64,000 bases of DNA. It comes from a candidate division WOR-3 bacterium (lineage in GTDB: Bacteria > Hydrothermota > UBA3073). Both the position numbers and the translations under genes were made by a program. Shown piece after piece: positions 10,230 through 61,498 of the stretch. Within the stretch, counting starts at the first letter, position 1. Each line of letters begins with the position of its first letter. Below the pieces are notes generated by a model. It saw only the letters and a list, made by a program, of their open reading frames with translations, made no database searches and was not told the DNA's origin. The stretch covers positions 26,065 to 90,064 of the forward strand of contig JAUWGP010000003.1 of the NCBI GenBank assembly GCA_030606335.1. Direction: 5' to 3'.

Positions 10230-10268
10230 ATACCCTCCTTTGTTTATATAGTATTGTTAAAAATCTCA

Positions 10269-10761: not shown

Positions 10762-10784
10762 TCGTAAATTACTTCTAATAAATT

Positions 10785-14034: not shown

Positions 14035-14050
14035 TAGAGATTATTTTATT

Positions 14051-15526: not shown

Positions 15527-15527
15527 C

Positions 15528-15767: not shown

Positions 15768-15774
15768 TTTATAT

Positions 15775-17581: not shown

Positions 17582-17634
17582 TGGAAATTAAACCTACTAC
17601 ATTTATCTCTGTGATATCAACAAAAATATAAGAA

Positions 17635-18702: not shown

Positions 18703-18725
18703 CCTTATACCCTAAATTATCTTAT

Positions 18726-43691: not shown

Positions 43692-45167
43692 TTATTTGCT
43701 AGTCTTCACAAATTTCACTGCCTTAATATAATCCTCAGAACATCTTACTCCAATAATTTTCTCTTTTAATCTCTTAATAATTTCTTCTTGTTTCATAAAA
43801 CCGAATTCTCCATCAATCTTATATCCTTCGGAGAGAATCTGCTGCATACTATTTTCGTATTCTTCAACAATATCATATGTACCCCTATATCTTATAATAA
43901 ACCACACCTCATCTAACTTAGTGATTCCCATGAGCGAATCAAGTTTATCTACACCAAGGTATGTATCCAACTTTGTACTTCCATAGAACCGAAATGGAAA
44001 TTCTGCTGTCATTACAATCGAATTATCGCTTGCTTCTTCTTCTACAGTTTCTACAATCTCTCTCCAGGGTACGATATATGCTTGATTGTGGAAATGCCTT
44101 ACCGTGTAGTAATTGAAAAGTCCATATAGATTACAGCAGATCAATAGAAAAAGGAGTGTATTACCAAATTTGGTTTCTTTTACACCTGCTGCTACAATAG
44201 TATAGGCAATCGGTGCAAGAAAAATTAGTCTGCTGGAAGAAAATGGAAAAAGTATTTGGGCAAATACAGTTGAAAGAGCAGTTGTACCAATAATAAGTGG
44301 AAGAATAAAAAAGGAAAAAGAGTATTTAGGATACCTCAGCATCCCCTTGAAGAATAGAAAATAGAATATCACTATAGTCGGTAGAGCAATAAAGAATTCC
44401 CATAGAAATATCGTCTCACCAATAGAGTAAGAGTATAGTGGATATAGCAATTTAAGGAAAAAATCTAAAGGAAGGTATGTTAAATTTCCTCCGATATGTA
44501 GAAAAAGAAGAACATAAATCCATGGAAGAAAGAGAAATACCACGATTGATTGCATAAATATCCATGTAGATAGACTGACTACCCTCTTTTCTTTCTTCTT
44601 GATAAGAAAATAAACGTTTTCTGCTACAAATAATATAACTCCTGGGTAAGCTGTATACAAGAGTAGAATATTGGACACACAGTAAAGCAATTTCCACCTT
44701 CTTTCAGGTCTCTTTATAATTTCGAGAAGTGATATTATAGACAAAACACCAAAAAACATCATAAGTGAGTAATATCTTCCCATTCGTGAATACATTACTA
44801 TGAATGGTGATGACATAAATAATAATAAGGATGAAATACCCAATTTACTCTTCTTGAAGTAGAAAAACATAAGAATGAGTGTTAACATAGAGAATACAAT
44901 GGAAGGGAATCTCAAAGCAAATTCACTTTGACCAAATGGAATCATCCAGAAATGAATAAAAATATAGTACATCGGGGAATGAATATCTATTACAAGGAGG
45001 TGTTTTAATATCTGTGATAACGGTTTTGATGCAACAATTATTGTACCTATCTCATCCCCCCAGAAGGCAAGGTTACCCAGTCTATAAATGAGTAACATGA
45101 AGAATACAATTATTAATAACCATTTATACCCCTCTATCTTATGAACCGATGATAAGAATTTATTCAT
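43692..45167 (-). CDS. GT-C fold membrane glycosyltransferase (ArnT/PMT-like, polyprenyl-phosphate-sugar dependent)
   Basis: About 11 TM helices. Acidic WGDE motif in the first extracytoplasmic loop. C-terminal soluble domain. Confidence 0.5.
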   Translation of the reverse strand: MNKFLSSVHKIEGYKWLLIIVFFMLLIYRLGNLAFWGDEIGTIIVASKPLSQILKHLLVIDIHSPMYYIFIHFWMIPFGQSEFALRFPSIVFSMLTLILMFFYFKKSKLGISSLLLFMSSPFIVMYSRMGRYYSLMMFFGVLSIISLLEIIKRPERRWKLLYCVSNILLLYTAYPGVILFVAENVYFLIKKKEKRVVSLSTWIFMQSIVVFLFLPWIYVLLFLHIGGNLTYLPLDFFLKLLYPLYSYSIGETIFLWEFFIALPTIVIFYFLFFKGMLRYPKYSFSFFILPLIIGTTALSTVFAQILFPFSSSRLIFLAPIAYTIVAAGVKETKFGNTLLFLLICCNLYGLFNYYTVRHFHNQAYIVPWREIVETVEEEASDNSIVMTAEFPFRFYGSTKLDTYLGVDKLDSLMGITKLDEVWFIIRYRGTYDIVEEYENSMQQILSEGYKIDGEFGFMKQEEIIKRLKEKIIGVRCSEDYIKAVKFVKTSK

Positions 45168-45179
45168 AAATCTCCTCCC

Positions 45180-46619
45180 TTATTTCATATAATCCTTTGT
45201 ATTTCTTAGTAGGAATATGGAGATGCCATTGCATTCCTTTATCTTTTCATAGCCCATTTCTCTTAATCTAAAAAACTCTAAGTCTTCATCATCAATTACA
45301 TCTACTATTAACCGGGGTTTATAACGTTGTAAAAGATTAGGGATATCTTCATAGGTAATAAGGTGATATCTCTCCCTTAATCTTGGAGCCACATTCTCAC
45401 TTACGTCATAGTTCGGTATCGCAAACTCAGGAACAGTTTCTCTGTCTGCCAGAAATCCAAAATAGAATCCAAAGGAAACTACCTTGTCATCCTTTTCTGT
45501 AACTGCTTCAATAGCCCTGGTTACATCTCTTATATTTGAAATTATATATTTCTTCTGCCATTCTCTTACATTAGAGAAATACATAAGAGAGCACGGAATG
45601 TAGGATGTTATGTATAAGATAAGAAGCCATTTGCTCCATGTTTTTCTTTTTAGATAACCAATATATGGTACAAGTAAGAATAAAAGAAATGGATAAATCT
45701 CTGTCATATAGCCGAAATGCGTAGGAGTAAGTATGAAATAGTATACTATAAAAAGAACTACAGCACAAATTAATGCCAACAATTCCTCTCTTCTCATTTT
45801 TCTCCACTTAATAGCTATTGCAAGTAGTATAAAAAGCACAATATTTGATGGAAAAAAGACAACCTTGGCAAGAATTAGGAATCTGTGGGTTATAAACCAA
45901 TAAAATGAAGGGGTAGTTCTGTTGAAATGATATAAAAAGTTACAGAAAAGAAAACAATCCGTATATTTAAAAAAATAATACAATGATGGAATAATACCAA
46001 GAACAAAACCAGCAACTGTATAAAGTATCATCTTCCACTCTCGCCTAAAGAGAAGAAGAATAATCGTAATAATAAGTAATACAATAAATATTGAGCGAAA
46101 ACTCACTGAAAGACCAATACAAATACCAGAAAGCAAAGAATATATACACCTTCTTCTCTTCAGGGAAAAGGAAAATAAAATAAGAAATAGAATATTTAAT
46201 AAATTCACCCAGGCTCTTTGTGTTGCCTGGATGGAGTTGTAGAAAAGCACTGCGTTACCTGTCCAGAGTATACCCATATAAACGGTCTCCTTCTTAGACT
46301 TATTAATATAAAATGTATATAGAAGGAGGATAACACCTGAGATAAGAGCAATAAGGGAAGATGATATTCTGGCGAGAAAGAAATTAGACCAACCACCACC
46401 AGAAAAAGGCAGAAAGACTAAAGCTGAGAGCGGCATCTGAGGGAAGAAAAAATCTTTATATAAGTGCATTCCTCTCGATATTAGTCTTGCTGCGGGAAAA
46501 TAATAGCTCAATTCATCTGTGAAAACATTTTGTATAAAGACAAGAGCAATAAGAATACTACCACTTATAATACAGTATAATATAATAAATTTGGATATGC
46601 TATTTCTACTTTGTTTCAT
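45180..46619 (-). CDS. GT-C-like polytopic membrane glycosyltransferase, paralogue 1
   Basis: 479 aa. TDELSYY acidic motif after TM1. About 85% identical to the 46901-48331 product. Confidence 0.5.
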   Translation of the reverse strand: MKQSRNSISKFIILYCIISGSILIALVFIQNVFTDELSYYFPAARLISRGMHLYKDFFFPQMPLSALVFLPFSGGGWSNFFLARISSSLIALISGVILLLYTFYINKSKKETVYMGILWTGNAVLFYNSIQATQRAWVNLLNILFLILFSFSLKRRRCIYSLLSGICIGLSVSFRSIFIVLLIITIILLLFRREWKMILYTVAGFVLGIIPSLYYFFKYTDCFLFCNFLYHFNRTTPSFYWFITHRFLILAKVVFFPSNIVLFILLAIAIKWRKMRREELLALICAVVLFIVYYFILTPTHFGYMTEIYPFLLFLLVPYIGYLKRKTWSKWLLILYITSYIPCSLMYFSNVREWQKKYIISNIRDVTRAIEAVTEKDDKVVSFGFYFGFLADRETVPEFAIPNYDVSENVAPRLRERYHLITYEDIPNLLQRYKPRLIVDVIDDEDLEFFRLREMGYEKIKECNGISIFLLRNTKDYMK

Positions 46620-46639
46620 TAAAATCCCTTAAGGATTTT

Positions 46640-46760
46640 CTAATTTATTTCTATGTGTTTTAAGAAGTTGGTGGTGGGTCTAAGCTGTTTTCATAGCAAT
46701 CCTGTCCCAAGAAAAATACTATTTGACAAACCCTTTATCACTACGAGATAGGGTTTCTTT
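46640..46760 (-). pseudogene. degraded 3' fragment of the GT4 glycosyltransferase gene (duplication scar)
   Basis: The reverse complement reads ETLSRSDKGFVK*YFSWDRIAMKTA*, against the intact C-terminus ETLSHKGKKLVKEYFSWDRIAVKTAETYQQL of the 48342-49526 gene. Confidence 0.5.
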
Positions 46761-46900
46761 TTTATTTTTACCCTTTAATAAATGTATAAGAAAGTCAGTT
46801 CTGCAGCATTTTATCACTGATTGTATTAAAAATTAATTTTATTTACCTTTCTGGGTTCCTATGGAAAGTAAGTAAAATTTACAAACTTATCTTTTATATC

Positions 46901-48331
46901 TCAATCACCAACTAATAAAAGCGATATACCCCTGTAATCTCCTATTTTCTTATAACCTAATTCCTTTAACTTAAAGTATTCTAATTCTGTCTTATCAATC
47001 ACATTTACTATTAGCCTGGGTCTATAGCGTTGTAAAAGCTGCGGGATGTCCTCATAAGTAGTAAGATGATACCTTTCCCTCTGTTTTGGACTTATATCCT
47101 CGCTTATGTCGTGAAGATAAAAAGCAAGTTCTGAAACAGTTTTTCTTTTCGCCAGAAATCCAAAATAGAATCCAAAGGAAACTACCTTATCATCCTTTTC
47201 TGTAACTGTTTCAATAGCCCTGGTTACATCTCTTATATTTGAAATTGAATGCCCCTTTTGCCAATCTCTGATGTTAAAGGAATACATTAAAGAGCACGGT
47301 ATATATGATGCAATATAGACAATTAGAAGCCATTTACTCCATGTTTTTCTTCTTAGATAACAGATATAGGGTACAAGTAAGAATAAAAGAAATGGGTAGA
47401 CCTCAGTCATATAACCGAAATGTGTAGGGGTAAGTAAGAAATAGTAAACTATAAAAAGGACTGCAGCACAAATTAATGCTAACAATTCCTCTCTTTTTAT
47501 TTTTCTCCACTTAACAGCTATTGAAAGTAATATAAAAAGCACAATATTTGATGGAAAAAAGATAACCTTGGAAAGAATTAGAAATCTGTGGGTTACAAAC
47601 CAATAAAATGAAGGGGTAGTCCTATTAAAATGATATAACAAATTACAGAAAATAAAATTATCCGGATATTTAAAAAAGTAATATAATGAAGGAATGACAC
47701 CAAGAACAAAACCAGCAACTGTATATAGTATCATTTTCCACTCTCGCTTAAAGAGAAGAAGAACAATCGCAATGATTAACAGTATTACAAATATTGAGCG
47801 AAAACTCACTGAAAGACCAATACAAACTCCAGAAAGTAAAGAATATATACATTTTCTTCTCTTTAAGGAAAGGGAAAATAAAATAAGAAACAGAATATTC
47901 AGTAAATTCACCCAGGCTCTTTGTGTTGCCTGGATGGAGTTGTAGAAAAGCACTGCGTTACCACTCCACAGGACACCAATATAAATAGTATCTCTCTTAG
48001 ATTTATTAATATGAAAGGTATATAGAAGAAGGATAACACCTGATATAAGTGTAAGTATGGAAGAAGATACTCTGGCGAGAAAGAAATTTGTCCATCCACC
48101 ATTTGAAAAAGGCAGAAAGACTAAAGCTGAGAGTGGCATTTGATTAAAGAAAAAATCTTTATATAATTTCTTTCCTATTGCTATTAAAGATGCTGCAGGA
48201 ATATAAGTACTTAATTCATCCGTATAAACATTTTGAGTAAAGATAAGAGCGACAAGAATACCTCCACTTATGATGCAGAATAATATGATAATTTTAAATA
48301 TGCTATCCTGACTTCGCCTCATGAAAACCAT
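46901..48331 (-). CDS. GT-C-like polytopic membrane glycosyltransferase, paralogue 2
   Basis: 476 aa, collinear with paralogue 1; even the antisense ORF shadows match (46205-46399 and 47908-48102). Confidence 0.5.
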   Translation of the reverse strand: MVFMRRSQDSIFKIIILFCIISGGILVALIFTQNVYTDELSTYIPAASLIAIGKKLYKDFFFNQMPLSALVFLPFSNGGWTNFFLARVSSSILTLISGVILLLYTFHINKSKRDTIYIGVLWSGNAVLFYNSIQATQRAWVNLLNILFLILFSLSLKRRKCIYSLLSGVCIGLSVSFRSIFVILLIIAIVLLLFKREWKMILYTVAGFVLGVIPSLYYFFKYPDNFIFCNLLYHFNRTTPSFYWFVTHRFLILSKVIFFPSNIVLFILLSIAVKWRKIKREELLALICAAVLFIVYYFLLTPTHFGYMTEVYPFLLFLLVPYICYLRRKTWSKWLLIVYIASYIPCSLMYSFNIRDWQKGHSISNIRDVTRAIETVTEKDDKVVSFGFYFGFLAKRKTVSELAFYLHDISEDISPKQRERYHLTTYEDIPQLLQRYRPRLIVNVIDKTELEYFKLKELGYKKIGDYRGISLLLVGD

Positions 48332-48341
48332 TTAAAGATTT

Positions 48342-49526
48342 TCAACTAACTACTGTGTGTTTTTTAACAAGTTGTTGGTAGGTTTCGGCTGTTTTTACAG
48401 CAATCCTGTCCCAGGAAAAATACTCTTTGACGAGCTTTTTACCCTTATGAGATAAAGTTTCTCTTAATTTCATGTCCTTCAACACATGTATAATCTTTTG
48501 TGCAATTTGCTCCTGATTTTGAGGGTCAATGAGCACTGCACTTCCTTCAATCAATCCAACGACATCCCTTACTGGACCAATATCTGATGCGATAACAGGA
48601 ACTCCAAATGCCATAGCTTCAATTAGCACTATCCCTTGAGTTTCGTAAAGTGTTGGGAAAACAAAAATACTCGCCTTTTTATATAACTCGTATATTTTCT
48701 GTCTTGGTAGGGGTCCAGTAAACTCTATATTTGAGGTTAGGTTGTTTTCCTTTATAAATTTCTGCAGTGAGTTAAAATAACCTTTTTCATCTACAGGTCC
48801 AGCGAAGATAAACATCGTATCAGGAACTTCTTTTAAAACACCTATAGATGCCCTTACTAAAGCTAACTGATTTTTTCTCCTGCAAATTCTTGCAGGGTAC
48901 ATCACAATATGTCTTTTTTCCCTGTTAGATTTATTATAATTAATATATTCCTTTATTTTTTCTACCTCTAATCCATAGTGTATCGAAGTAATTTTCAAAG
49001 AATTTAATCCAAAATGAGACACAAGTGTGTTCTTTACGCTTATAGTGGGGGTAAATATGTGGTCAATCCTCTTAAGTAGTATAGACTCTGCTATGTGCTT
49101 TATCCTGTTTAAAAGTGAGGGGTTGAGTATAAACTTAGTGTTATGAGTGGTATATAATATAACTATATGCCATTTGAAAATACTCTTTGCAATCAGTACA
49201 AACAAACCTGCAAATTGTGAGTGACTATGAATTATATCTACAGGCTTCTCTTTTAATAAGTAGTATAATTTAGGTATTGTACTATAGGCAAATGAGAGAA
49301 CCTGTAATAATGGGTGAACATCACATAGGGAGGGTATCTTTACCTCACAGAAAACAATTCCTGTTTTTCCTCTATCTATATTCGATTTTATATCGATTAT
49401 ATCAACACTATTTCCATATTTAACTAGCTTCTTAGAAAGTTCATATATTGCATTCTCTACGGCACCGACACCAATAGGTGGGATAGACATAATACCCGTA
49501 CCAATATGGACAATATTCATTCCCAT
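48342..49526 (-). CDS. GT4-family (group 1) glycosyltransferase
   Basis: GT-B C-terminal motif E...GIVLIEAMAFGVPVIASDIGPVRDVV; 394 aa. Confidence 0.8.
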   Translation of the reverse strand: MGMNIVHIGTGIMSIPPIGVGAVENAIYELSKKLVKYGNSVDIIDIKSNIDRGKTGIVFCEVKIPSLCDVHPLLQVLSFAYSTIPKLYYLLKEKPVDIIHSHSQFAGLFVLIAKSIFKWHIVILYTTHNTKFILNPSLLNRIKHIAESILLKRIDHIFTPTISVKNTLVSHFGLNSLKITSIHYGLEVEKIKEYINYNKSNREKRHIVMYPARICRRKNQLALVRASIGVLKEVPDTMFIFAGPVDEKGYFNSLQKFIKENNLTSNIEFTGPLPRQKIYELYKKASIFVFPTLYETQGIVLIEAMAFGVPVIASDIGPVRDVVGLIEGSAVLIDPQNQEQIAQKIIHVLKDMKLRETLSHKGKKLVKEYFSWDRIAVKTAETYQQLVKKHTVVS

Positions 49527-49592
49527 ATTATCCGTCTTGTATAAAAATCCTAATTTTTATGTCATCTATCACCAGATCCATATAATAACATA

Positions 49593-52500
49593 CTATCTGA
49601 TATATACAAGTTTAGATGTTTTAAGTTCGCCCTCTGTATCGAGAACAATAAAATAGACCCCATTTGCAACCTTGTTTCCGTTTTCACCTACTCCACTCCA
49701 TTTTAATGTATAAGTTCCACCCTCTCTGGGCTCGTCAAGAAGTGTCTTTATGACTCTGCCACATACATCATACACTTTTATCTTCACATGTTTAATAGAG
49801 GATATTTGATACCTTATATCAACTATTCCTCTCATGGGATTAGGATAAGGTGGAAAAATACAGTCTATATACGGAAAGTCCATAGTAACTTCTGTAATTT
49901 CAGGTATAACAAATCCGTAAAGTCCTGTGTTCCATCTATCATGTCTTGCTGAGCCCCATTCAATACTATCTCCCTCAACCTCCCATACGTATAAATAAGT
50001 TCCCTGATAGTTAGTCACCAGAAGTTCATTCATACCGTCGTCATCTATATCATCAATCACAGGAGACCTCTTTATGTTATGGTATGTCTGTACTGGAAAG
50101 CCCGGCGTGAATGAACCATCTGCCTCTATAGAATATACAGCGCCATCTGTTCCTCCAACAACCACCTCCATGTTACCATCACCATCAACATCGGCTATCA
50201 GGGGTGGAGATGCAGGGAGTGCATCTCTATGTCTCATCCTCAAGTGAACAGGCCAACCTGAAAGTAACATTCCTTCTTTATTCCATGCAGTAACCTGATC
50301 AAAACACACCATTACTATATCAGGTTCGCCATTACCTGTTACATCACCCACTGCAATACCAGGTCCCTCAGATGGAGGAGGAGAATATTCCTGTGGCCAT
50401 CCTGTTAGTGGTCTGCCAAACCTATTCAAAACCCACAACTTTTCTTCTGTAGCTGTAATAATCTCAAGTCCATCCATCTTTAAGTCTATATCTGCGATTG
50501 ACGGGTTCACTATGACATCAGCCTCAAGCCATACAGGAAAGCTGTCAATTACCTCTCCTTCAGGATTCCATACATAAAGGCTGTCTCCACCTGCAATTAT
50601 CTCAAGTGTGTCATCTCCATCTATATCGGCAATAGAAGGTGAAATTAAACTTGGGTTGACTCCAACATTAGAAAAAAGGTTCACACTCCCTGTATGCTCA
50701 ATTAAATATATATTTCCAGAAAAGGTGAGAACAATAATCTCAAGAAATCCATTGCCATATATATCTTGCAGAACAGGTGAACCAATAAGACCAACTCCTG
50801 CATCAGGTAGTAGTACAGGGAAACCCTGTTCAATCTGCCCCTCTCCATTAAAAACATATATTGAACAACATGAGGAAGCCCAAAATGGTGCAATTATAAT
50901 CTCCTCCTCTCCGTCTGCATCAATATCTCCTACAGCTGACCTGCCCCATACAGGATATTCTACATTAGCAAATTCTTCCTCATCTAAAAGCGTAGAACCA
51001 TCACAATGCCATCCATAAAGTCGACCATCATCACACCCACAAAAAACCTCTTTCCCGGTATGAGTTTTATCTATATCTGCGCAGACTACTACCCAGAAAG
51101 GCTTTTCCTTTGGTCCCTTCTTGGGCCATCCGGTTTTCATCACGGGATTTGTCTTGCCATAAATATGAGCTGATAGCCCACTTTCATTCATAAAGGAATC
51201 TATTGCACTTACTCTGTAGTAGTAGCCTGTCCATGGTAAAAGACCCTGATCGAGTAACATAGAATTTTCACTCTGTATAATTGAGTTTAATTTAATATAT
51301 CCAGTTTCTTCTACACCACTCCTGTAGATGTTGTATCCAATAGCATAATCTACAGGTTGCCAGAAAATTCTCATGCTTGTCTCACCTGGAAAGACATATA
51401 AACCCTCCGGAGGTAGTAAATTCCTTACTATAAAAGTATCCACCCATGTCCTGTCTAATCCATCTATCACCACAATACTAAAGATTGAATCACCTCCTGT
51501 ATAGGAAAATGCATCTTCTATTAGAAGGAGTGTATCGGGTTCAAATAAATCGATATTATATATACTATCAATTATATTGCTGGAGCTCAATGTTGCTGTC
51601 AGACTCTCTACCTCTCCAAATCCTGAATTCCTTAAAACAATTGACATAGAGAAGGTATCTGTTGATATTTCATTTATACTATGTCCATAGTGAAAAATCT
51701 CTGGATAATAAATATAAAGTAGGGTAGAATCCCTTGAACTCAATGTGTCATTATAATAAATATTAAAGGCAAGATATACTATAGGATCTTCCATCTCCTT
51801 GTTTATAAGAATGGTTGCAATAACTGTATCACTCTCACCTTGAGAGAGGTCCTTCATAATAAATAATGTATCTATCAGGTTGACAAGCGTGTCATTGGTA
51901 TAACCTTTTGCAGATATATTCCAGGCATCTGAACCACCACTATTCATAAACTCACATAAAAACGAAATAGAATCACCTGAAGATAAAATCTCAGGCGAGA
52001 AATCCTTAATTATAATATAAGGTTGCTCGGGTTCTACATACAGCTCACCCTCATAAGGTATATAATTATGTGCTGTCACAACAATCGATAGCATACCCTC
52101 TACCTCTGGTGTCAGCTCAAATGAGGCAACGCCGCTTTCATCTGTATATGCAGTGGCATATACATTCTCGTTTGATACACATATATAGGCACCTGAAAAA
52201 GGAAATTCATCATCGGTTACATATATATCAAATATCTGTTGTCCAACATCCACTGTGTCATCGTAGACTACAGATAATGTGTCAGGAAAATCCGTCCAGA
52301 GGTATATCTCAGGGTCTCCCAGATAATTAAGTGCATAGTTCTCCCATCTCCACCAGACCCCAGTTCCTCCAGTTATCTTGGATGCTGCATCTGCCTCTGC
52401 TGGAGAGAATAGAGAGTCGGTAAAAATAGCCTTAAAGAATGCTCTATTTATAGGTCTGGAACATTCGGGAAAGTCTGACCTTGTTGAGGCAATTATCCCA

Positions 52501-53987
52501 ATTCCACCGCCAAGGTTGCTCTCAATGTAATGTGCACAGAAGTTGTCTGAATCATAGGAATTTGTCCAACATGTTGTTAGATACATAAATCCAGATGGGT
52601 TTATCAGTGAATCCCAGTCACTTCTCCAGATAGGTGGCCATCTGGAGAGCATAACCCTTAGATCTTCGATGTACCCATGACATACAGCATACACCATATT
52701 ATAACCGGTTACGATTGAATCCAGAAATTCCTCTCTTGTGGGATATCCATAATACTCATACATCTTGCTAACAGTAAAATCATCTGGCAACTCATCTGCT
52801 ATATCCTCACAGTGTTCCATTCCATCTAAACCCCATTCTCCATTACCTGAGAAGAGCTCTGAACCTACAAGCATAATCTTCTTCTGATAGCCATATAGGG
52901 GAGATTTTTCGTATAAAAGGAGTTTTTCAACAAGACTCTCTGCTCCTTCCCTGGTTTGTACAGGTAATCTTCCTATAAATACATCATATCCCATATCGAC
53001 GTCATCCTCAGACTCGCCAAATATTCCATTGTCATTTGCATCCCAGTCTCCATCAAGACAGGCATAATACATATCAGTTGGTATCAGTTCACCTAAATTA
53101 TACTCTGCCTGAATGAATGCATACCTCACTGGTATTATATTTATACCTCCCCCAATTACTATATAACATAACCCCCACTTCTGGTACGCATCCTTTATAA
53201 AGTTTCTTATCTTCTCAGATACATCACATCCTGTATAGTATGACTCGATCCATTCCAGAGTCCTAATGGTCGACCTTACTCCCTTTCTTGATTTCCAGTA
53301 TATTAGCGGCATAAAGGATTCTTTCAGTGAATCGCTGGTTATAAGACATAGGTCTATCCTATCAGAGGTGTAACTTGGTAACTCTGTCTCGCTTTTCATT
53401 TTTAAAACTGAAAATCTTTCTTTACAATTCTTAGACCAATCACTCTCAAATATTGATAGAAACCTGTTAATTCTCTCTCTTGTGTAAATGCTTCTTTCTG
53501 GAGAGACAACGTATACTGGTTTATAACTGAATGAGAAATCAATATTCTGAATAAATGAAATACTGCTGTCTTCAGGATGATAAAGCAGTGGGTGAACTGC
53601 TATAGTAACTATTCTTTCACCAAAATATACATCCTCCCTTTTTATCTCAACTATAGAAGACGGATATATATCTGCACATTCTAATGAAATAAATGGTCCC
53701 TCTTCATTGTCAAGCCTTTTATATGGTTGAAAGGGATAGGGTATGAACTTGCCATCGAGTGATATCATCATTATATTTTCCAATCTTACTTTAGAGATTG
53801 CCATGCCATGCGGCATGACAAAATGAAGAAGTCTTTCAGGTAGTTCAGGTTGACCTACCTTCTCAGTTTTAGTACATCCACACATGGATATTCTATCGTA
53901 ACAACCCTGCTTAAGGATTGTTAAATCTCCTATATCGAAGGTCAGAGTGGTAGTAAATAATGAAATCGTTATGAAGATGCTTATCAT
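49593..53987 (-). CDS. C25 (gingipain-like) cysteine peptidase with Fn3 domain, FG-GAP/VCBS repeats and T9SS C-terminal sorting domain
   Basis: C25 core (LCLITSD...WKSRKG...IVIGGG...DMYYACLDGDWD...FIGRLPV); catalytic His (AVCHGY) and Cys (YLTTCWT); Fn3 (IFWQPVDYAIGYNIYRSG); repeated DIDADGEEEI / DVDGDGNMEV / DIDDDGMNEL FG-GAP units. C-terminus PYPNPM...KWSGVGENGNKVANGVYFIVLDTEGELKTSKLVYIR. Confidence 0.7.
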   Translation of the reverse strand: MISIFITISLFTTTLTFDIGDLTILKQGCYDRISMCGCTKTEKVGQPELPERLLHFVMPHGMAISKVRLENIMMISLDGKFIPYPFQPYKRLDNEEGPFISLECADIYPSSIVEIKREDVYFGERIVTIAVHPLLYHPEDSSISFIQNIDFSFSYKPVYVVSPERSIYTRERINRFLSIFESDWSKNCKERFSVLKMKSETELPSYTSDRIDLCLITSDSLKESFMPLIYWKSRKGVRSTIRTLEWIESYYTGCDVSEKIRNFIKDAYQKWGLCYIVIGGGINIIPVRYAFIQAEYNLGELIPTDMYYACLDGDWDANDNGIFGESEDDVDMGYDVFIGRLPVQTREGAESLVEKLLLYEKSPLYGYQKKIMLVGSELFSGNGEWGLDGMEHCEDIADELPDDFTVSKMYEYYGYPTREEFLDSIVTGYNMVYAVCHGYIEDLRVMLSRWPPIWRSDWDSLINPSGFMYLTTCWTNSYDSDNFCAHYIESNLGGGIGIIASTRSDFPECSRPINRAFFKAIFTDSLFSPAEADAASKITGGTGVWWRWENYALNYLGDPEIYLWTDFPDTLSVVYDDTVDVGQQIFDIYVTDDEFPFSGAYICVSNENVYATAYTDESGVASFELTPEVEGMLSIVVTAHNYIPYEGELYVEPEQPYIIIKDFSPEILSSGDSISFLCEFMNSGGSDAWNISAKGYTNDTLVNLIDTLFIMKDLSQGESDTVIATILINKEMEDPIVYLAFNIYYNDTLSSRDSTLLYIYYPEIFHYGHSINEISTDTFSMSIVLRNSGFGEVESLTATLSSSNIIDSIYNIDLFEPDTLLLIEDAFSYTGGDSIFSIVVIDGLDRTWVDTFIVRNLLPPEGLYVFPGETSMRIFWQPVDYAIGYNIYRSGVEETGYIKLNSIIQSENSMLLDQGLLPWTGYYYRVSAIDSFMNESGLSAHIYGKTNPVMKTGWPKKGPKEKPFWVVVCADIDKTHTGKEVFCGCDDGRLYGWHCDGSTLLDEEEFANVEYPVWGRSAVGDIDADGEEEIIIAPFWASSCCSIYVFNGEGQIEQGFPVLLPDAGVGLIGSPVLQDIYGNGFLEIIVLTFSGNIYLIEHTGSVNLFSNVGVNPSLISPSIADIDGDDTLEIIAGGDSLYVWNPEGEVIDSFPVWLEADVIVNPSIADIDLKMDGLEIITATEEKLWVLNRFGRPLTGWPQEYSPPPSEGPGIAVGDVTGNGEPDIVMVCFDQVTAWNKEGMLLSGWPVHLRMRHRDALPASPPLIADVDGDGNMEVVVGGTDGAVYSIEADGSFTPGFPVQTYHNIKRSPVIDDIDDDGMNELLVTNYQGTYLYVWEVEGDSIEWGSARHDRWNTGLYGFVIPEITEVTMDFPYIDCIFPPYPNPMRGIVDIRYQISSIKHVKIKVYDVCGRVIKTLLDEPREGGTYTLKWSGVGENGNKVANGVYFIVLDTEGELKTSKLVYIR

Positions 53988-54079
53988 AATAAAAAATTAG
54001 TTATTGGTTTACCCTGCCTGCCATATTTAATGTTTCACTTTATTACATTATGGCTTGTCCTGTAGCACAGTGTACAGGG

Positions 54080-54165
54080 TGAAATGCGAACTTGTGAGCT
54101 ATTTCATCAGGGTCATTAGTTTACCCTATGAAATGTGAACTCGTGAGCTATTTCATTGGGGTCAT
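54080..54165. repeat. tandem about 49-bp duplication, each unit carrying an ATGAAAT/ATTTCAT hairpin
   Basis: gtgaaatgcgaacttgtgagctatttcatcagggtcattagtttaccct followed by atgaaatgtgaactcgtgagctatttcattggggtcattgggctattcc. Confidence 0.5.
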
Positions 54166-55097
54166 TGGGCTATTCCCAACCTCCTTGGTAAATACATGGC
54201 AGCAAGGTCCACTGTTCTCTGACAGTTTAACCAACATCGATTACATCGGGTAAATGAACGAATCGCTTCTTTTGTCTTTCTATCTCTCCATATCTGTCCG
54301 AAACTTCTCTTATGTAGATTACCAAGCTTTATTTTCCTTGCCTCACACAGTTCAACATCACCATTTGGTTTTATTACCGGTCTAACATATATACTAAGGC
54401 AGGGAAGGTTTAACCTCCTATTTGCCCATAGAGAATAAAGGCTGTAATAATCTGAAGTAAACATATCCGATACATCATAGAGTTCTAATACTTCTCTTTC
54501 TATACCGAAATATTCAACAAAAGAGAAGTATCCAACACTGAGTCCAATATTGTGACTTTTGGTAAAATCAAGTACAAACTCCAAGTCCTCTTTTGTGTTC
54601 CATTTACTTATTGTATATTCAATCTCAATACTGCTGAACTCCTTAATTTCATCAACAATTTTCTCGACGTTCCTAAATGTATCTATACCCCTTATATACT
54701 TGTTGGTTTCAGGTTTTCCATCAAGTGAAACTGAGACATATTTCACCTTTTCGTCCTTTACAAGCGAAATCAGTTCATCTACTAAGATTCCGTTCGAAAA
54801 AACCCTTATATTTTTCCCTCTGAAAAGGGATACAATCTCTCTGCATTCAGGATGAAGGAGAAAATCACCACCTGTGATAATAAATTCCATATCATCTCCA
54901 ATTTCATCATCCGCTAATAGCATTTCAATTATAGACTTATCCAGGTCAATTTTTTCTACCATTCTCCATATATTACAGGTCCTACATCTCGATGTACATC
55001 TATTAGTTATATATATAGGCATGGAGAGAATTCGTCTTCTCCTTATCGAATAAATAAGCCTTGAGAGATTAAACGCTTTATTAAAAAATCTATCCAT
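54162..55097 (-). CDS. radical SAM enzyme with C-terminal SPASM/twitch-like Cys cluster
   Basis: CTSRCRTC (CxxxCxxC) near the N-terminus. C-terminal CEARK...CNRCWLNC cysteine cluster. The start may be the internal ATG at 55022. Confidence 0.75.
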   Translation of the reverse strand: MDRFFNKAFNLSRLIYSIRRRRILSMPIYITNRCTSRCRTCNIWRMVEKIDLDKSIIEMLLADDEIGDDMEFIITGGDFLLHPECREIVSLFRGKNIRVFSNGILVDELISLVKDEKVKYVSVSLDGKPETNKYIRGIDTFRNVEKIVDEIKEFSSIEIEYTISKWNTKEDLEFVLDFTKSHNIGLSVGYFSFVEYFGIEREVLELYDVSDMFTSDYYSLYSLWANRRLNLPCLSIYVRPVIKPNGDVELCEARKIKLGNLHKRSFGQIWRDRKTKEAIRSFTRCNRCWLNCQRTVDLAAMYLPRRLGIAQ

Positions 55098-55227
55098 TTA
55101 TAAAGCCAGATTAATATAAAATTCAGCTGTATTATAGTTATATTTAATGAACTTTTATGTAAATAATTATACCATACATAAAAAGAAATGTCAATAATTT
55201 AAAAATAAAAGACTGACCAAACATTCT

Positions 55228-56229
55228 TCAAAGATTTCCTATCAGAGATTTTAAAATTTTATAATAGCAATCCTTCGAACCAAAATATCTTGTGATAGAC
55301 CTTTTTCCAAAATCTATAAACACACCAGGTGCGTAATAAAAAAACCATGAAAGAATTTTTGCAGGCATAAAATTCTTATGAAACTCCCTAAAATATGGGT
55401 CTAAAAACGGTTTTTGGAATTTTAGATGTTGTTCTATCATCTTACCTGCCAATAATGCTGAAAGAACTCCAGAGTATATACCTGCTGCAGTAATTGGTGA
55501 GGCAAAAGCTCCTGCATCACCAATCAGAATCATATTTTTCTTTATCCTTATCCCTTCTCTCCAAATTGGGTAGCGATAGTGGTATACCTTTCCACATAGT
55601 TCAATCTCTAATTCTTCTCTCAGTTTTATTGCCCACCTTTTAGGGTCCTCAAACCCTCCAGCGCCAAAAGCAACTGTGCTTTTCTTTGGCCAGAACCATG
55701 TATATCCTGCTCCAGGTCCAATTGAAACTATAAAATCTTCAGCGCGAAGGGGTAATTCCCATTCAACAGTTTCAATCCATCGAGGATACTGGATACCTAT
55801 AGTTTTCCTCACTATGCTGAACGGTCCATCAGCACCTACAATAATTCTAGCTTCATATATAGAATTACCTGTATATACATAATTATCCTTGACCCTTCGA
55901 ACCATCTCAAAGACAACTTTGGCTCCAGCATCTGTTGCCATATCGAGCAGATAACAATCAAAATCTTCCCGTTTCACAGTAACTATTGGAGCAGCGAGTT
56001 TTAATTGCCAGCTTCTATTACCCTTTTTTAGAGTTAGATGGTCAAATCTACGCTCAAAAGGGAAATCACCTATCAGTTCACTCAGAATAAAGGGAATAGC
56101 TCCCGCACAGACCTTATACCTGGGGAATTTTCTCTTCTCAATTATCAGGACATCAAATCCTTTCGATGAAAGTAATCTACCCAATGTAGAACCTGAGGGT
56201 CCCCCACCAACAACTATTACATCGTACAT
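55228..56229 (-). CDS. FAD-dependent oxidoreductase, geranylgeranyl-reductase family
   Basis: YDVIVVGGGPSGSTLGRLLSSKGFDVLIIEKR dinucleotide fold with CAGAI; 333 aa, the typical GGR/FixC-like length. Confidence 0.7.
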   Translation of the reverse strand: MYDVIVVGGGPSGSTLGRLLSSKGFDVLIIEKRKFPRYKVCAGAIPFILSELIGDFPFERRFDHLTLKKGNRSWQLKLAAPIVTVKREDFDCYLLDMATDAGAKVVFEMVRRVKDNYVYTGNSIYEARIIVGADGPFSIVRKTIGIQYPRWIETVEWELPLRAEDFIVSIGPGAGYTWFWPKKSTVAFGAGGFEDPKRWAIKLREELEIELCGKVYHYRYPIWREGIRIKKNMILIGDAGAFASPITAAGIYSGVLSALLAGKMIEQHLKFQKPFLDPYFREFHKNFMPAKILSWFFYYAPGVFIDFGKRSITRYFGSKDCYYKILKSLIGNL

Positions 56230-56312
56230 ATAACCTTATTATATTATAAACAAATCGATTTATAAAAAAGTTACCAGGCAGGTTCCTATTTTTAAAGCTA
56301 AATATTTCCTTT

Positions 56313-56975
56313 TTAAGTTCTTCGGTGAGCCTTCAGGAATATATGCACCCCGAATCGACCACTTTTTATATTGAAGTATAAACTCTCATTTATATGTCTT
56401 ATGAATGGTATCCCAAGCGGTTTTGTATAAACTTTATCAACATTAAATCCAGCTTTTAAAAAGAGCGATAAAAGGCTTTTATGGTTGAACAACTGGATAT
56501 GAAGAGGGTCATATAGATAGTCATAGCCAGTAATAGCAGACTTAATTTTATGCAGAAATGCCCATCTATTGGGTGTAGAGACAACAATCCTCCCCTCCTT
56601 CTTGAGTAATCTCTTTATGCTGCGTAGTGTATTGAGAGGCTTGGGTAGATGTTCAACAACCTCTATCATTGTTACTGCATCATAGATATCCTTATCCATA
56701 TCTTTCAGCTTTATATTTTTAAATGATATGTCTGGATAGTTTGAAGATGCTATTTTAAGTGCCTTTTCATTTATATCTATCCCCTCTGGGACCGCTTCAT
56801 ATTTCTTTTCCAGGAGATAACAGAATTCCCCTGTTCCACATCCTACATCAAGTATCCTCTCCCCCTTCTTTGGCGAAAGGATTGTAATAATCTCCCTAAA
56901 CTCCCAATTATCGTAATCCTTAAGATGGAGTATGGCGTATCTATAGTCGTATTCCATAGTAAAATCAAAAATCAA
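56313..56975 (-). CDS. class I SAM-dependent methyltransferase
   Basis: Motif I ILDVGCGTGEF; motif post-I/II (GIDINEKALKIA; AVTMIEVVEHL). Confidence 0.75.
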   Translation of the reverse strand: MIFDFTMEYDYRYAILHLKDYDNWEFREIITILSPKKGERILDVGCGTGEFCYLLEKKYEAVPEGIDINEKALKIASSNYPDISFKNIKLKDMDKDIYDAVTMIEVVEHLPKPLNTLRSIKRLLKKEGRIVVSTPNRWAFLHKIKSAITGYDYLYDPLHIQLFNHKSLLSLFLKAGFNVDKVYTKPLGIPFIRHINESLYFNIKSGRFGVHIFLKAHRRT

Positions 56976-57099
56976 ATATTAAATATCAAAATTTTTAGCC
57001 ACAGATTACACAGATTCTCGATCTCACCTCTTTTTAAACAGGGACTTGAACGAGACATAAACGAGATTTTATCTAAAGAATAACGTGCAAGAGAGCCTA

Positions 57100-57440
57100 T
57101 GTTATTGCGAGTTAATTCCATCCTGGCTGGTGTCTTGTTAACTAACTTAGTTCACCTTTTTTCTTTGTCAAGATGCTATGGTAGTATCAGGTTCCTACCT
57201 ACGATTATGAGTCACAACGAGCCTGTCTACCGTCAGGTAGATAGGTTGCTCCAACCTCCAAAGGATACATTATTTTATAGAACACTAACTGTCATTGCGA
57301 GACTGAACGAAGTGAAGTCGTGGCAATCTCATCCTTTACTTCTAATATCTAAATGCGATTGCTTCACCTATGGTTCGCAATGACAAAAGTGAATGCCTGT
57401 CATTGCGAGCGAACAAAGTGAGCGTGGCAATCTCATTCTT
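57100..57440. repeat. composite dispersed repeat ('cattgcgag' family), copy D
   Basis: gttattgcgag..., tgtcattgcgagactgaacgaagtgaagtcgtggcaatctcat, gattgcttcacc...ttcgcaatgacaaaagtgaatgcctgtcattgcgagcgaacaaagtgagcgtggcaatctcat. The 94-aa ORF here is repeat-derived. Confidence 0.6.
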
Positions 57441-58839
57441 TATTACCTAAAACAACCCTTATATCCTCTTTTGTTATCCCCTTCATAATATAGAGTAAAA
57501 ATGTATATATAACTGCACCAATAAACACAAGCAGAATAACATTTAACGACCTCAAGAAGTAAAGAATGGCACACATTATTGCTGAAGCAAAAATCGGCTT
57601 TCCAAAAAATGTAAACAACCTAAACTTCACTACTCTATGAAAAACACGATACATAAGGTAGAACATAATTAACTCAGCACATATAGTTGCTAAAGCCGCT
57701 CCTATTATACCAAGTCTTGGTATCATAATCACATTCAGAATTATATTCGACACAGTGCCTGTCACCATTGCTACTGCATATCTCTTCTCCTGTCCTGTGC
57801 CAATTAACCCCTGTGTGTATATACTTCCTATCGTAGTAATTGCCAGGGTCCATATAAGTATCTGGAGGACTGGAGTTGAGGATGTGTAACCTTGTCCAAA
57901 TATAAACCTTATGATGGGCATTGCAAGCAAGGTCCCTCCGGCACATATTGGAATAACTACAGTTATAACTGCCCTGGCAGCCATAGAGAGTATCTCCTCA
58001 AGTTTCTTAATCGATTCCTTATAATATCTCGAAATAAGGGGAAGTATAACCATTGAAAAAACCCTATCCACAAGTAGAAGAAACATTAGAAGTTTATAGG
58101 CAACAGTATAAAGACCAACATCCGTTGTGCCTCTTATAAATCCAAGCATAGTAATATCGAAGTTAAAATATATCTGAGTCATCACAGTTCCTATTCCTAT
58201 AGGTAGGGCATGTTTCAATATTTCCCAGGTTCTGATTTCCAATCTCGGACCAACGACCTTCAGCTCACTTCTTCTTCGCACCATTAAACCGAGATATAGA
58301 GCCGCCACTGCACTTCCAGTAAACCAGAGAATCGGTACAAGATATATATTACCCGTACTTCTGACAAATAAAAGCACCAGAAATAGATACGAACCATATG
58401 ACATTATCATTGATGTACCTATGTTTCTCATCTCCTCGATTCCTCGGAAAAACCACTCAAGGGATAATGCGTATGGAAAGACAGAAAGGCAATAGAGGAT
58501 TATAAGCAGCCTCATATCCATCATGCCTTTGATAAGGAAGGTTAATATTGTAATAATTGTAAAGGCGGTTGCTGCAAGTAAAAATTTTAAGGGAATTATT
58601 TTAGTTATGTAGTCTTTTGAAAGGAGGGGTGCCTTTGCAATCTCTCTTGTGCCAATAGTTGATAAACCGAGGTCAGTAAAAATGAGTGCATAACCGAGGA
58701 ATGTGAAGGCAAAACTTAATGCGCCAAATCCTGCGACTCCCAGCACTCTCGCAAGCCAGATTGTAGCAAAAAAACCCAGGAGACGAGATAAAACATCTCC
58801 AGAGAATACAAATAGAATGTTCTTTGCAATTCTTCTCAC
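57433..58839 (-). CDS. MOP-superfamily polysaccharide/oligosaccharide flippase (Wzx-like)
   Basis: About 12-14 TM helices; N-terminus KNILFVFSGDVLSRLLGFFATIWLARVLGVAGFGALSFAF is the Polysacc_synt pattern. Confidence 0.75.
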   Translation of the reverse strand: MRRIAKNILFVFSGDVLSRLLGFFATIWLARVLGVAGFGALSFAFTFLGYALIFTDLGLSTIGTREIAKAPLLSKDYITKIIPLKFLLAATAFTIITILTFLIKGMMDMRLLIILYCLSVFPYALSLEWFFRGIEEMRNIGTSMIMSYGSYLFLVLLFVRSTGNIYLVPILWFTGSAVAALYLGLMVRRRSELKVVGPRLEIRTWEILKHALPIGIGTVMTQIYFNFDITMLGFIRGTTDVGLYTVAYKLLMFLLLVDRVFSMVILPLISRYYKESIKKLEEILSMAARAVITVVIPICAGGTLLAMPIIRFIFGQGYTSSTPVLQILIWTLAITTIGSIYTQGLIGTGQEKRYAVAMVTGTVSNIILNVIMIPRLGIIGAALATICAELIMFYLMYRVFHRVVKFRLFTFFGKPIFASAIMCAILYFLRSLNVILLVFIGAVIYTFLLYIMKGITKEDIRVVLGNKE

Positions 58840-58843: not shown

Positions 58844-59740
58844 TTAATCTATATCCTCAAGCTTCTCAACATTCGTTATCTCTACATCTGGTAGGGTTCT
58901 TTTTATCAATCCTTTCAATACCTTGCCAGGACCCACCTCTACAAACCGACTCACACCGTATTCTTTCATCGCCGTAACACATTCTACCCATCTCACAGGT
59001 GAGACTATCTGTTTCTTGAGTGCATCTTCTATCTGATTTACATCTCTGGTTAATGCTCCGGTCACGTTCAAGGCAACAGGAATATTGGGTGTGTTAAATT
59101 TGAATTTGGTCAAAACCTTACCGAATTTTTCAAAGGCAGACTGCATAAGAGGAGAATGAAATGCACCTGAAACCTGCAGCTTGATAACTCTTTTTGCACC
59201 TGCCTTCAAAGCCCTGGCAGAAGCAATCTCAACTGCCTTCTCATTTCCCGATATCACAGTTTGTGCAGGTGAATTGTAATTCGCAATAATAACATTATCG
59301 ATCTCATCTATTATTTCCTTTACCGCAGTCGTATTAAGTCCAATAATTGCACACATAGCACCAGGACTCTTCTTTCCAGCCTCTGACATAAGTTCTCCCC
59401 TGAATCTAACAATATGTAGTACATCATCAAATGAGAATACACCAGCAGCATAAAGCGCAGAATATTCTCCAAGTGAGTGTCCAGCAAAACAGTCCGGATT
59501 TAAACCCTTTTCTTTGAGTAACTCAAAACATATAATGGAATTCATAAGTATGGCAACCTGGGCATTTTTGGATTCTTTTAGAATATCTTCAGGTCCACTA
59601 AAAAGTATGTCTTTTATGTCAAAACCGAGAACCTTCTTAGAACTCTCAAAGAAATATTTTGCCTTTTCACTACCATCGTACAGGTCTTTTGCCATACCAA
59701 CATACTGTGAACCCTGTCCCGGAAAGACAAATCCAATCAT
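58844..59740 (-). CDS. fabD: malonyl-CoA:ACP transacylase
   Basis: FPGQGSQYVGM, GHSLGEYSALYAAG active-site motif. Confidence 0.9.
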   Translation of the reverse strand: MIGFVFPGQGSQYVGMAKDLYDGSEKAKYFFESSKKVLGFDIKDILFSGPEDILKESKNAQVAILMNSIICFELLKEKGLNPDCFAGHSLGEYSALYAAGVFSFDDVLHIVRFRGELMSEAGKKSPGAMCAIIGLNTTAVKEIIDEIDNVIIANYNSPAQTVISGNEKAVEIASARALKAGAKRVIKLQVSGAFHSPLMQSAFEKFGKVLTKFKFNTPNIPVALNVTGALTRDVNQIEDALKKQIVSPVRWVECVTAMKEYGVSRFVEVGPGKVLKGLIKRTLPDVEITNVEKLEDID

Positions 59741-60753: not shown

Positions 60754-61246
60754 ATATAATAATTAAAGTTATTAATAACATCCAGTAGTATTATACATTA
60801 TATACAAACAAAAGTCAAGCAAAAAATTGGACGTCCCGCCTTTGGCGGGATCCCGAAGAAAGCGGGACAGATTCACCCTGTTAAATAACTACAATGGTAA
60901 ATGTTAAAAATCACTAATAGCTGGATATTTAACACGGTAACCGCTGATTACTCCTAATTTCTTTATTTTTGTAATTGAAAAACATTTGATACCAAAAAAA
61001 TGCTTATACTAAGCTGTATCCTCGTTTCATGTTTATCATCTTTATTCCTTTTACCCCGCCAAAGGTGGGGAAACGAAGCTTCCCAGAATTCGTATCCATA
61101 CGACCCTACGGCTCGTTCACAGAATCCGTATGGATGTGAGATCCTTACAATCTACCTAAAAAACATCATAGTAATTAGATTTGTATAATACTATTTTTAA
61201 CCAGTTAGTGTAAAAATTTTATAAATACCAATTCCTTTTGAAATCC

Positions 61247-61310
61247 GTTGAATAAATGTAATCTGCTCAATCCGTTGAATCCGTTGAATAAATATAATCT
61301 GCTCAATCCC
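61247..61310. repeat. 2.x tandem copies of a 30-nt unit (aatccgttgaataaatRtaatctgctcaatcc)
   Basis: Direct visual repeat in the 1.29-kb non-coding gap. Confidence 0.5.
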
Positions 61311-61469
61311 TGCCTACCGGCAGGCAGGCGTTGACCTGATTTTTTATAATTTTGTGAACGTATAAGCTACATTCACAGATAGAAACCTGGAAACCTTTTC
61401 CCACAATCATTCAATATTTGCTATTCACTATTTACTACTAAATATTTACTATTTAATATCATTTTTTCC

Positions 61470-61498
61470 TTGACAAATTGGTATTTTTTGATTATAAT
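61470..61498 (+). promoter_or_regulatory. consensus sigma70 promoter (TTGACA-N17-TATAAT)
   Basis: ccttgacaaattggtattttttgattataat; same architecture as the 35530 promoter. Confidence 0.5.

Follow-up and report, generated by a model that had tools for sequence, protein, structure and literature searches.

In Haloferax volcanii, N-glycosylation by the agl system involves the Wzx-like flippase AglR, the dolichol phosphate mannose (Dol-P-Man) GT-C enzyme AglS and the methyltransferase AglP. In the T9SS (type IX secretion system), PorZ is the component that delivers the anchor glycolipid. The anchor glycan of Porphyromonas gingivalis is built by cytoplasmic glycosyltransferases and ligated by WaaL, in a model that names no GT-C enzyme (PMC13086638). 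For O-glycosylation in the Bacteroidota, a 2025 review lists the oligosaccharyltransferase, the ligase and the core-glycan flippase as undiscovered and describes a core glycan pathway that resembles eukaryotic O-mannosylation (PMC12871550); our literature searches likewise found no identified Bacteroidota O-oligosaccharyltransferase. Here we analyze a minus-strand locus of a candidate division WOR-3 bacterium that combines GT-C enzymes, a GT4 glycosyltransferase, a Wzx flippase and a T9SS cargo protease, and for which literature searches found no paper. It occupies positions 43692-58839 of a 64,000-nucleotide (nt) stretch (the window: contig JAUWGP010000003.1, positions 26,065 to 90,064) and contains nine intact open reading frames (ORFs), whose positions and families, as given in a first-pass annotation, were confirmed by an ORF check and, for most of the families, by Pfam and NCBIfam assignments (Table 1). 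With moderate confidence, we read the locus as a composite, strain-variable envelope-glycosylation region with at least three separable modules, and most likely its genes decorate the WOR-3 cell surface with sugars.

The modular structure is apparent when neighborhoods are compared across the loci of relatives (denoted by L numbers), including a tblastn map. In the same species (L013) the arrangement is identical to that of the window. At 64-67% identity (L006/L007) the order is Wzx-methyltransferase-reductase-radical SAM-C25, and at about 70% identity (L012) it is C25-GT4-GT-C-PMT_2. The JGI_Cruoil lineage (L009-L011) has radical SAM-C25-GT4-GT-C followed by a dead PMT_2 gene, and lacks Wzx, methyltransferase and reductase, while in L019 the radical SAM gene (72% identity) stands alone, adjoining rbfA. 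Only relatives at 64% identity or above retain the order Wzx-methyltransferase-reductase-radical SAM, and GT-C relatives in other lineages have no reductase, Wzx or methyltransferase nearby. The region comprises at least three modules: FabD-Wzx-methyltransferase-reductase, the radical SAM gene, and C25-GT4-GT-C(-PMT_2). Among the points that support separate modules for the reductase and radical SAM genes is a promoter-like sequence between them, matching the sigma-70 consensus at 12 of 12 positions, a consensus that may not be WOR-3's own. The first-pass annotation had treated the GT-C, reductase, flippase and GT4 genes as one lipid-linked glycan pathway; the GT-C, GT4 and Wzx families do fit lipid-linked envelope glycosylation, but the genes of the region fall into separable modules, not into one integrated pathway.

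Of the three GT-C proteins, the PMT_2 protein passes its Pfam cut-off (Table 1). For the paralog pair, a word-index search found 8 homologs and an exhaustive search with a hidden Markov model (HMM) found 2037 representatives at E <=0.001, all about 500 amino acids (aa) long. Thirty-four of the 64 aligned family members match PMT_2, and the Asp-Glu (DE) motif is nearly invariant among the 64. PDB searches of the GT-C proteins with a single sequence or a shallow profile found nothing; with the family profile of the pair, TMEM260 (E 2.8e-7) and ArnT (E 2.8e-6) were matched, and the DE motif aligned to the DEG of ArnT. An AlphaFold model of 45180-46619 built on the 8-sequence alignment reached a predicted local distance difference test score (pLDDT) of 50 and was discarded, and the rerun on 64 sequences reached 92. 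Foldseek placed ArnT (5F15) on top of the matches to this model (TM-score 0.70, E 8e-8), followed by ALG12, STT3, ALG9 and PglB. The PMT_2 protein aligned to the pair's family in hhalign with a probability of 95% and with D38-E39 in register. These results bear out the earlier assignment of three GT-C-fold enzymes with an acidic DE motif in loop 1, and classify the proteins as ArnT/PMT-type GT-C enzymes rather than as membrane proteins of another function. By analogy with all characterized GT-C enzymes, their donor would be a polyprenyl-phosphate-linked sugar.

As judged from the sequences, the pair among the three GT-C genes arose by a recent tandem duplication. It was delimited by blastn and covers 45240-46789 and 46943-48493 at 82.5% nucleotide identity; the duplicated block took in ~150 nt from the 3' end of the GT4 gene, and this piece is now a dead fragment in the spacer, present also in L013 and L014. 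Relatives at 70% identity have a single GT-C copy instead of the pair. Neither copy is disrupted in the window or in L013, the ratio of nonsynonymous to synonymous divergence (dN/dS) between them is 0.23, and both are under purifying selection. Between the window and L013, the synonymous divergence (dS) of the GT-C and PMT_2 genes is 0.18-0.40, compared with 0.03-0.06 for flanking genes and 0.03 for IF2, with a dN/dS of about 0.2 for GT-C, PMT_2 and flanking genes. The three GT-C genes (43692-48331 in the window, 8298-12928 in L013) are thereby 3 to 13 times more diverged at synonymous sites than their flanks in genomes that are otherwise near-identical. This suggests recombination or strain-level glycan variation; such raised divergence is typical for surface-glycan genes.

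Next to the GT4 gene lies the large C25 protein, with a gingipain-type prodomain, a C25 domain, Ig-like and FN3 domains, an FG-GAP propeller and a T9SS type A C-terminal domain. Its catalytic residues, H437-G438 and C473, do not vary among 8 homologs. Its profile matches RgpB (3.8e-18), Kgp and the Kgp prodomain (2.4e-8) in the PDB. The sorting domain (residues 1381-1461) exceeds the cut-offs of both TIGR04183 (32.7 vs 23) and Por_Secre_tail (29.7 vs 27). Cleaved cargo C-terminal domains are 67-88 residues long, and those of PorU and PorZ 96-108 (PMC11285876); at ~84 residues, the domain of the C25 protein has the length of cleaved cargo. By its sequence the C25 protein is a gingipain-like T9SS cargo and not a sortase, in agreement with the T9SS-sorted C25 peptidase proposed at first pass.

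A link between these glycosyltransferases and the T9SS is suggested by PorZ-like genes. The window has one at a distance of ~8 kb from the GT-C genes, on the far side of the nusA-infB operon, and it is kept there in L010, L012, L014 and L019. Scanning metagenomes with the GT-C family gave 80 loci. Among the closest GT-C relatives outside WOR-3 (23-29% identity), one lineage (L104, L105, L107, L114, L120, L125 and L126) has a same-strand row PorZ-GT4-(413 aa)-GT4-GT-C-GT2, which L104, L125 and L126 show in part; PorZ is present in L105, L107, L114 and L120. In L105 this row spans 3606-12425, between lnt and the mraW-ftsI division genes; its second GT4 is GT4-like, and its PorZ scores 226 bits over the full length against a cut-off of 260. 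A shorter protease, consisting of prodomain, C25 domain and C-terminal domain, lies convergent to the PorZ row in L105, L114 and L125, and in L111 a PorZ-like gene is found 5 kb from the GT-C gene. The PorZ-headed row raises the hypothesis of a role for GT-C enzymes in T9SS surface attachment outside the Bacteroidota, which would be a variant of the P. gingivalis scheme because the model of that scheme names no GT-C enzyme.

A second indirect line of support comes from O-glycosylation sequons. The C25 protein contains 18 sequons of the Bacteroidota type D-[ST]-[AILVMT], compared with 5.4 ± 2.2 expected from composition (z 5.7), and permuted, E-substituted or N-substituted control motifs are not enriched (z -1.5 to 1.1). 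In orthologs at 63% identity, 16 of the 18 are kept, often via allowed substitutions, where class-wise residue retention predicts 39%; the binomial estimate of ~2e-5 is based on two orthologs that are close to each other. Summed over the small sample of one 64-kb window, proteins with a signal peptide have 56 sequons against 22 expected (~2.5-fold), and cytoplasmic proteins 18 against 21. The sequon-rich proteins of the window are encoded at 49593-53987, 62039-64000 (10 vs 3.6 expected), 33382-35505 and 22162-24702, and exported proteins of L111 (16363-18387), L102 (15753-18086) and L019 (9040-11154) are enriched as well. The suggestion that the pathway may glycosylate or anchor T9SS substrates gains indirect support from the PorZ-linked row and from these sequons; a connection of GT-C/GT4/Wzx glycosylation to T9SS cargo or to its anchor is plausible.

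The radical SAM/SPASM enzyme has the cluster motif C34-x3-C38-x2-C41 (CX3CX2C), read directly from the sequence, and scores below every NCBIfam equivalog cut-off. Its homologs at 41-47% identity are found, in some cases as two copies, in gene clusters that also encode several GT2s, a DegT aminotransferase, an epimerase and a polysaccharide deacetylase; such neighbors make a part in the tailoring of sugars or glycans more probable than one in the maturation of peptides. A 53-aa ORF adjoins a more distant third radical SAM gene in those clusters, which leaves some doubt regarding a reading as maturase of ribosomally synthesized and post-translationally modified peptides. An example of such a glycan cluster is seen at L015 4212-13203 (also in L016-L018), with three radical SAM/SPASM genes, several GT2s and a DegT aminotransferase, as well as the 53-aa ORF, a HemB-like gene and a polysaccharide deacetylase. 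For the GT4 enzyme, too, no NCBIfam equivalog cut-off was reached. Upstream of Wzx, the position of FabD is taken in L007 by a cut gene of no assigned family that ends 4 nt before the Wzx start. The gap between Wzx and the methyltransferase measures 458 nt in the window and 130 nt in L007, and is filled in the window by two copies of a dispersed intergenic repeat. This repeat, with the 11-mer GTCATTGCGAG, occurs in 6 copies in the window (0.02 expected), often followed ~20 nt later by CGTGGCAATCTC; its sites include 57289-57442, 27473-27596 and 4154-4164.

In the reading that we prefer, the recurrent core would consist of the gingipain-like T9SS cargo protease, followed by the cytoplasmic GT4 and by ArnT/PMT-type GT-C transferases, one of which was recently duplicated. 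The GT-C enzymes would, by analogy, transfer a sugar on the periplasmic side, most plausibly to proteins that are exported or delivered by the T9SS, or to a glycolipid of the lipopolysaccharide (LPS) type that tethers T9SS cargo. The radical SAM/SPASM enzyme would contribute as a member of a family found in sugar-tailoring clusters. FabD, Wzx, the methyltransferase and the reductase would form a separate upstream unit, in which the reductase, a true member of the geranylgeranyl reductase family, probably saturates an isoprenoid chain, with nothing that ties it specifically to a carrier lipid. If this conservative reading holds, the locus is an ordinary lineage-specific surface-glycan region, and its value lies mainly in annotation, of a large and mostly unnamed GT-C family and of an orphan clade of short reductases of the geranylgeranyl reductase (GGR) type.

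Several observations weigh against this interpretation. As encoded at the locus, the glycosylation pathway is incomplete, because no initiating phosphoglycosyltransferase, polyprenyl-phosphate-sugar synthase (GT2), Wzy or WaaL was detected among the locus and window proteins; a chain-length regulator was likewise undetected among them, and of the components of a Wzx/Wzy-type locus only Wzx is present. At 36 of 40 GT-C family loci of at least 8 kb there is no C25 neighbor. Synteny within WOR-3 has little depth, with IF2 at 76-77% identity and the nusA-infB-rbfA flank conserved to the same degree; the adjacency of C25 and glycosyltransferase genes may be simply inherited gene order. The PMT_2 gene is dispensable in one lineage; in WOR-3 JGI_Cruoil_03_44_89 it is a frameshifted pseudogene lacking residues 50-231 (L009 11461-12398), in the same state in three independent assemblies (L009, L010 and L011), next to intact C25, GT4 and GT-C genes. 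With respect to the sequons, the L105 lineage has the GT-C row, yet its fold-matched PorZ and C25 proteins are without enrichment, and L019 has sequon-rich proteins without a GT-C module at this site.

Some of these points are shared by an alternative that we consider unlikely, in which the GT-C enzymes are LPS modifiers of the ArnT type, acting by attachment of a sugar to lipid A or core, and the adjacency to the protease is a gene order inherited without functional meaning. The best structural match is indeed ArnT, including the C-terminal periplasmic domain, the sequence profile matches ArnT too, and a gene for LptB lies nearby; the shallow synteny that reaches the housekeeping flanks and the lack of a C25 neighbor at most GT-C family loci fit as well. 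On the other hand, C25, GT4, GT-C and PMT_2 are all missing together at the L019 site, although this may be one insertion-deletion event, and a similar neighborhood of GT4, GT-C and C25 with PorZ recurs where both proteins are only ~27% identical. Moreover, the best sequence match in the PDB is the protein O-mannosyltransferase TMEM260, and the window contains no genes for a donor pathway of the 4-amino-4-deoxy-L-arabinose (L-Ara4N) type (ArnA/B/C-like).

A more specific extension of the glycosylation reading is that WOR-3 has a sequon-directed O-glycosylation like that of the Bacteroidota, with the GT-C, GT4 and Wzx proteins of the locus as part of the machinery for exported and T9SS cargo proteins; we consider this unlikely. 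If true, the PMT-like GT-C enzymes would be candidates for the missing transferase step of the Bacteroidota, because they lie adjacent to sequon-rich cargo and that pathway resembles O-mannosylation. Sequon enrichment next to PMT-like enzymes would then provide concrete candidates for the undiscovered transferase, and a reductase-modified carrier lipid would become worth considering.

Such a modified carrier had been proposed in the first-pass annotation, where the reductase was coupled to the GT-C pathway: it would saturate the polyprenyl-phosphate carrier to a dolichol-like lipid for the three GT-C enzymes, in one integrated pathway with Wzx and GT4. We regard this as quite unlikely. On the basis of its sequence, the protein is a true GGR-family enzyme of an orphan, short sub-type. 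All GGR signature motifs, as defined in PMC10821996 (including the catalytic Cys and the cavity motif YxWx(F/W)P), are present: G8-G10-G13 (GxGxxG), C41, R87/F90/D91, Y176-x-W178-x-x-P181 and G237-D238 do not vary among the 12 aligned members of the clade, and the protein reads GYTWFWP and LIGDAG, with W in place of the F of (P)xxYxWxFP. GG-red-SF (TIGR02032) is the best-scoring model for each of these 12 proteins (best E 7.8e-52), although the WOR-3 protein stays under its cut-off (134.2 vs 158.8 bits) and is ~60 residues shorter than typical GGRs. The clade comprises 11 clusters among 5.8 billion proteins (333-360 aa, 37-95% identity), and the list of homologs shows a sharp step in E-value from 1e-55 (clade) to 1e-28 (ordinary GGRs). 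It does not group with menaquinone or chlorophyll reductases or with FixC: scores for BchP-ChlP (82 vs 343), ChlP (51 vs 505), MenJ (39 vs 700) and DGGGPL reductase (42 vs 580) are low, and FixC (7KOE) matches the N-terminal half only, with 57 bits. Modification of a quinone by the methyltransferase-reductase pair was considered and set aside, with the UbiG and UbiE models far under their cut-offs for the methyltransferase and the MenJ model equally so for the reductase.

Saturation of a carrier is chemically reasonable, since GGR enzymes acting on glycan carrier lipids have precedent: in Haloferax, saturated dolichol phosphate requires the GGR, and Z,E-heptaprenyl diphosphate is the substrate that HepR reduces in mycobacteria (PMC10821996). 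The reductase also adjoins the cluster in two lineages. The idea fails on co-conservation, because members of the reductase clade occur in unrelated contexts and the GT-C module is also found with no reductase beside it. Coupling is limited to relatives at 64% identity or more; the member at 56% identity adjoins riboflavin genes and a canonical GGR, that at 54% has unrelated neighbors, that at 41% has Fe-S/flavin electron-transfer genes and an LPG_synthase_TM protein nearby, and that at 37% adjoins pyrimidine genes. The neighborhood of the 41% member would fit a lipid reductase. A strong promoter-like site parts the reductase from the downstream genes, and annotation of the window proteins shows no cis-prenyltransferase or polyprenyl-phosphate-sugar synthase nearby. 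A profile scan of genome contigs with the reductase alignment relied on generic FAD-binding patterns and yielded no synteny information; the matches listed were distant GGRs at 32% identity or less, with no WOR-3 orthologs among them. In L003 (2882-7825), the 41% member shares its gene row with FlpD, with two Fe-S proteins and with an NAD/FAD-binding Fe-S protein, and the LPG_synthase_TM membrane protein comes next; these Fe-S/flavin genes may be a dedicated electron-donor system for this type of reductase.

Finally, it is very improbable that the C25 protein is the lineage's PorU-type sortase, building and coupling a T9SS anchor glycolipid together with the PorZ-like protein and the glycosyltransferases: PorU (NF033707) outscores the other NCBIfam models on the C25 domain (57 bits in the window, 96 bits in L105) and PorZ-like genes lie nearby in three lineages, but both scores are far under the cut-off of 420, the match in the window covers model positions 367-537 only, the PDB profile search matched the gingipains and no PorU chain although a PorU structure is deposited (6ZA2; PMC11285876), the gingipain-type prodomain is present where the long N-terminal region of PorU is lacking, and the length of the C-terminal domain fits cleaved cargo, so that this reading was rejected.

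Table 1. Genes and other features in and around the WOR-3 glycosylation locus (window positions).
Feature	Position	Strand	Details
PMT_2-type GT-C glycosyltransferase, 491 aa	43692..45167	-	Pfam PMT_2 41.2 bits vs cut-off 26.1; DE at D38-E39
ArnT-like GT-C glycosyltransferase, paralog a, 479 aa	45180..46619	-	GT87 borderline, 25.5 vs 25; DE at D35-E36
Dead copy of GT4 3' end in duplication spacer	46638..46789	-	In-frame stop; YFSWDRIAMKTA, then stop, vs GT4 C-terminus YFSWDRIAVKTAE
ArnT-like GT-C glycosyltransferase, paralog b, 476 aa	46901..48331	-	No Pfam match; 78% amino-acid identity to paralog a; DE at D38-E39
GT4 (GT-B fold) glycosyltransferase, predicted cytoplasmic	48342..49526	-	Glycos_transf_1 123 bits, Glyco_transf_4 69 bits
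Gingipain-like C25 cysteine peptidase zymogen, 1464 aa	49593..53987	-	Peptidase_C25 146 bits, FG-GAP, TIGR04183 32.7 vs 23
Radical SAM/SPASM enzyme, 311 aa	54162..55097	-	Radical_SAM 52 vs 29.5; SPASM 34 vs 21.5
Sigma-70-like promoter match	55166..55194	-	TTGACA-17-TATAAT with TG, between reductase and radical SAM genes
Short geranylgeranyl-reductase-family flavoprotein, orphan clade, 333 aa	55228..56229	-	GG-red-SF 134.2 bits, E 8e-39
Class I SAM-dependent methyltransferase, 220 aa	56313..56975	-	Methyltransf_23 94 bits
Two copies of dispersed intergenic repeat	57289..57442	+	CTGTCATTGCGAG ... CGTGGCAATCTCAT; in 458-nt Wzx-methyltransferase gap
Wzx-type MOP flippase, 468 aa	57433..58839	-	Polysacc_synt 122 bits
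FabD malonyl-CoA-ACP transacylase	58844..59740	-	TIGR00128 324 bits vs 261; ends 4 nt before Wzx start
PorZ-like beta-propeller protein with T9SS C-terminal domain	33382..35505	+	NCBIfam T9SS_PorZ 99.8 bits (cut-off 260), Por_Secre_tail 35 bits

The names given to these genes by NCBI are uninformative; examples are 'FAD-dependent monooxygenase' and 'hypothetical protein', and the PMT_2 ortholog is called 'glycosyltransferase family 39 protein'. The remainder of the window consists of housekeeping genes, except for a type I restriction-modification system (HsdR, HsdS, HsdM; 10785-20231), interleaved with RadC-like, DUF4062 and unknown genes and followed by a Fic/DOC gene at 20813-21859. Annotation of the window proteins revealed dxs, at the far end, as the sole additional isoprenoid or glycan gene, and tRNA and Rfam searches of the window gave no match. 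The dxs-like gene is represented by its 3' part (1-1220, plus strand), with transketolase domains and the GPLDGHN motif, 54 kb from the reductase; its sequence indicates the methylerythritol phosphate (MEP) isoprenoid pathway. At the other end, an ORF on the plus strand (62039-64000) encodes a protein of at least 653 aa with a signal peptide and continues past the window end, and the higher GC content there is due to this large ORF. The long intergenic region 60754-62038 contains a 32-nt direct repeat in tandem (61242-61309; 36-nt spacing, 97% identity). A second 12 of 12 sigma-70 match is located at 61470-61498, in a 1.2-kb non-coding stretch upstream of lptB.

Compared with known systems, the locus resembles each in part. 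In contrast to the Haloferax agl system, it is bacterial and has no AglB/STT3 oligosaccharyltransferase; the combination of a Wzx-like flippase, a PMT_2-type GT-C enzyme and a SAM-dependent methyltransferase is shared at the generic family level only. With the general O-glycosylation of the Bacteroidota it has in common a sequon that is enriched in predicted exported proteins and conserved in orthologs, together with Wzx and glycosyltransferases, although WOR-3 lies outside the Bacteroidota and the locus is not universal in relatives.

As in P. gingivalis gingipains, the protease has a prodomain, a C25 and an Ig domain and a T9SS C-terminal domain of the cleavable type, to which it adds an FG-GAP propeller. 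Of the attachment system for A-LPS and T9SS cargo in that species (PorU, PorZ, WbaP, GtfC, GtfF, VimF, Wzx, Wzy, WaaL), a nearby PorZ-like gene, a GT4 and Wzx are mirrored here, in a locus that is dominated by GT-C enzymes and is without WbaP, Wzy and WaaL. The GT-C enzymes themselves share with ArnT (GT83), GT39/PMT and TMEM260 the GT-C fold, a multi-helix membrane domain and Asp-Glu in the first periplasmic loop, and the modeled WOR-3 protein also has the small C-terminal periplasmic domain of ArnT/PMT. They differ from ArnT/PMT in showing only 12-16% sequence identity, in the position of the duplicated pair below curated family cut-offs except for the borderline GT87, and in the lack of donor-synthesis genes (GT2 of the ArnC, Ppm1 or Dpm1 type) at the locus. 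Similarly, the reductase differs from archaeal and mycobacterial GGRs in its length (333 aa vs ~390-450), its score below the GG-red-SF cut-off and its placement in a separate small clade, whereas the FAD fold and the five signature motifs, the catalytic cysteine among them, are common to it and to Thermoplasma/Sulfolobus GGR, Haloferax GGR, HepR and MenJ.

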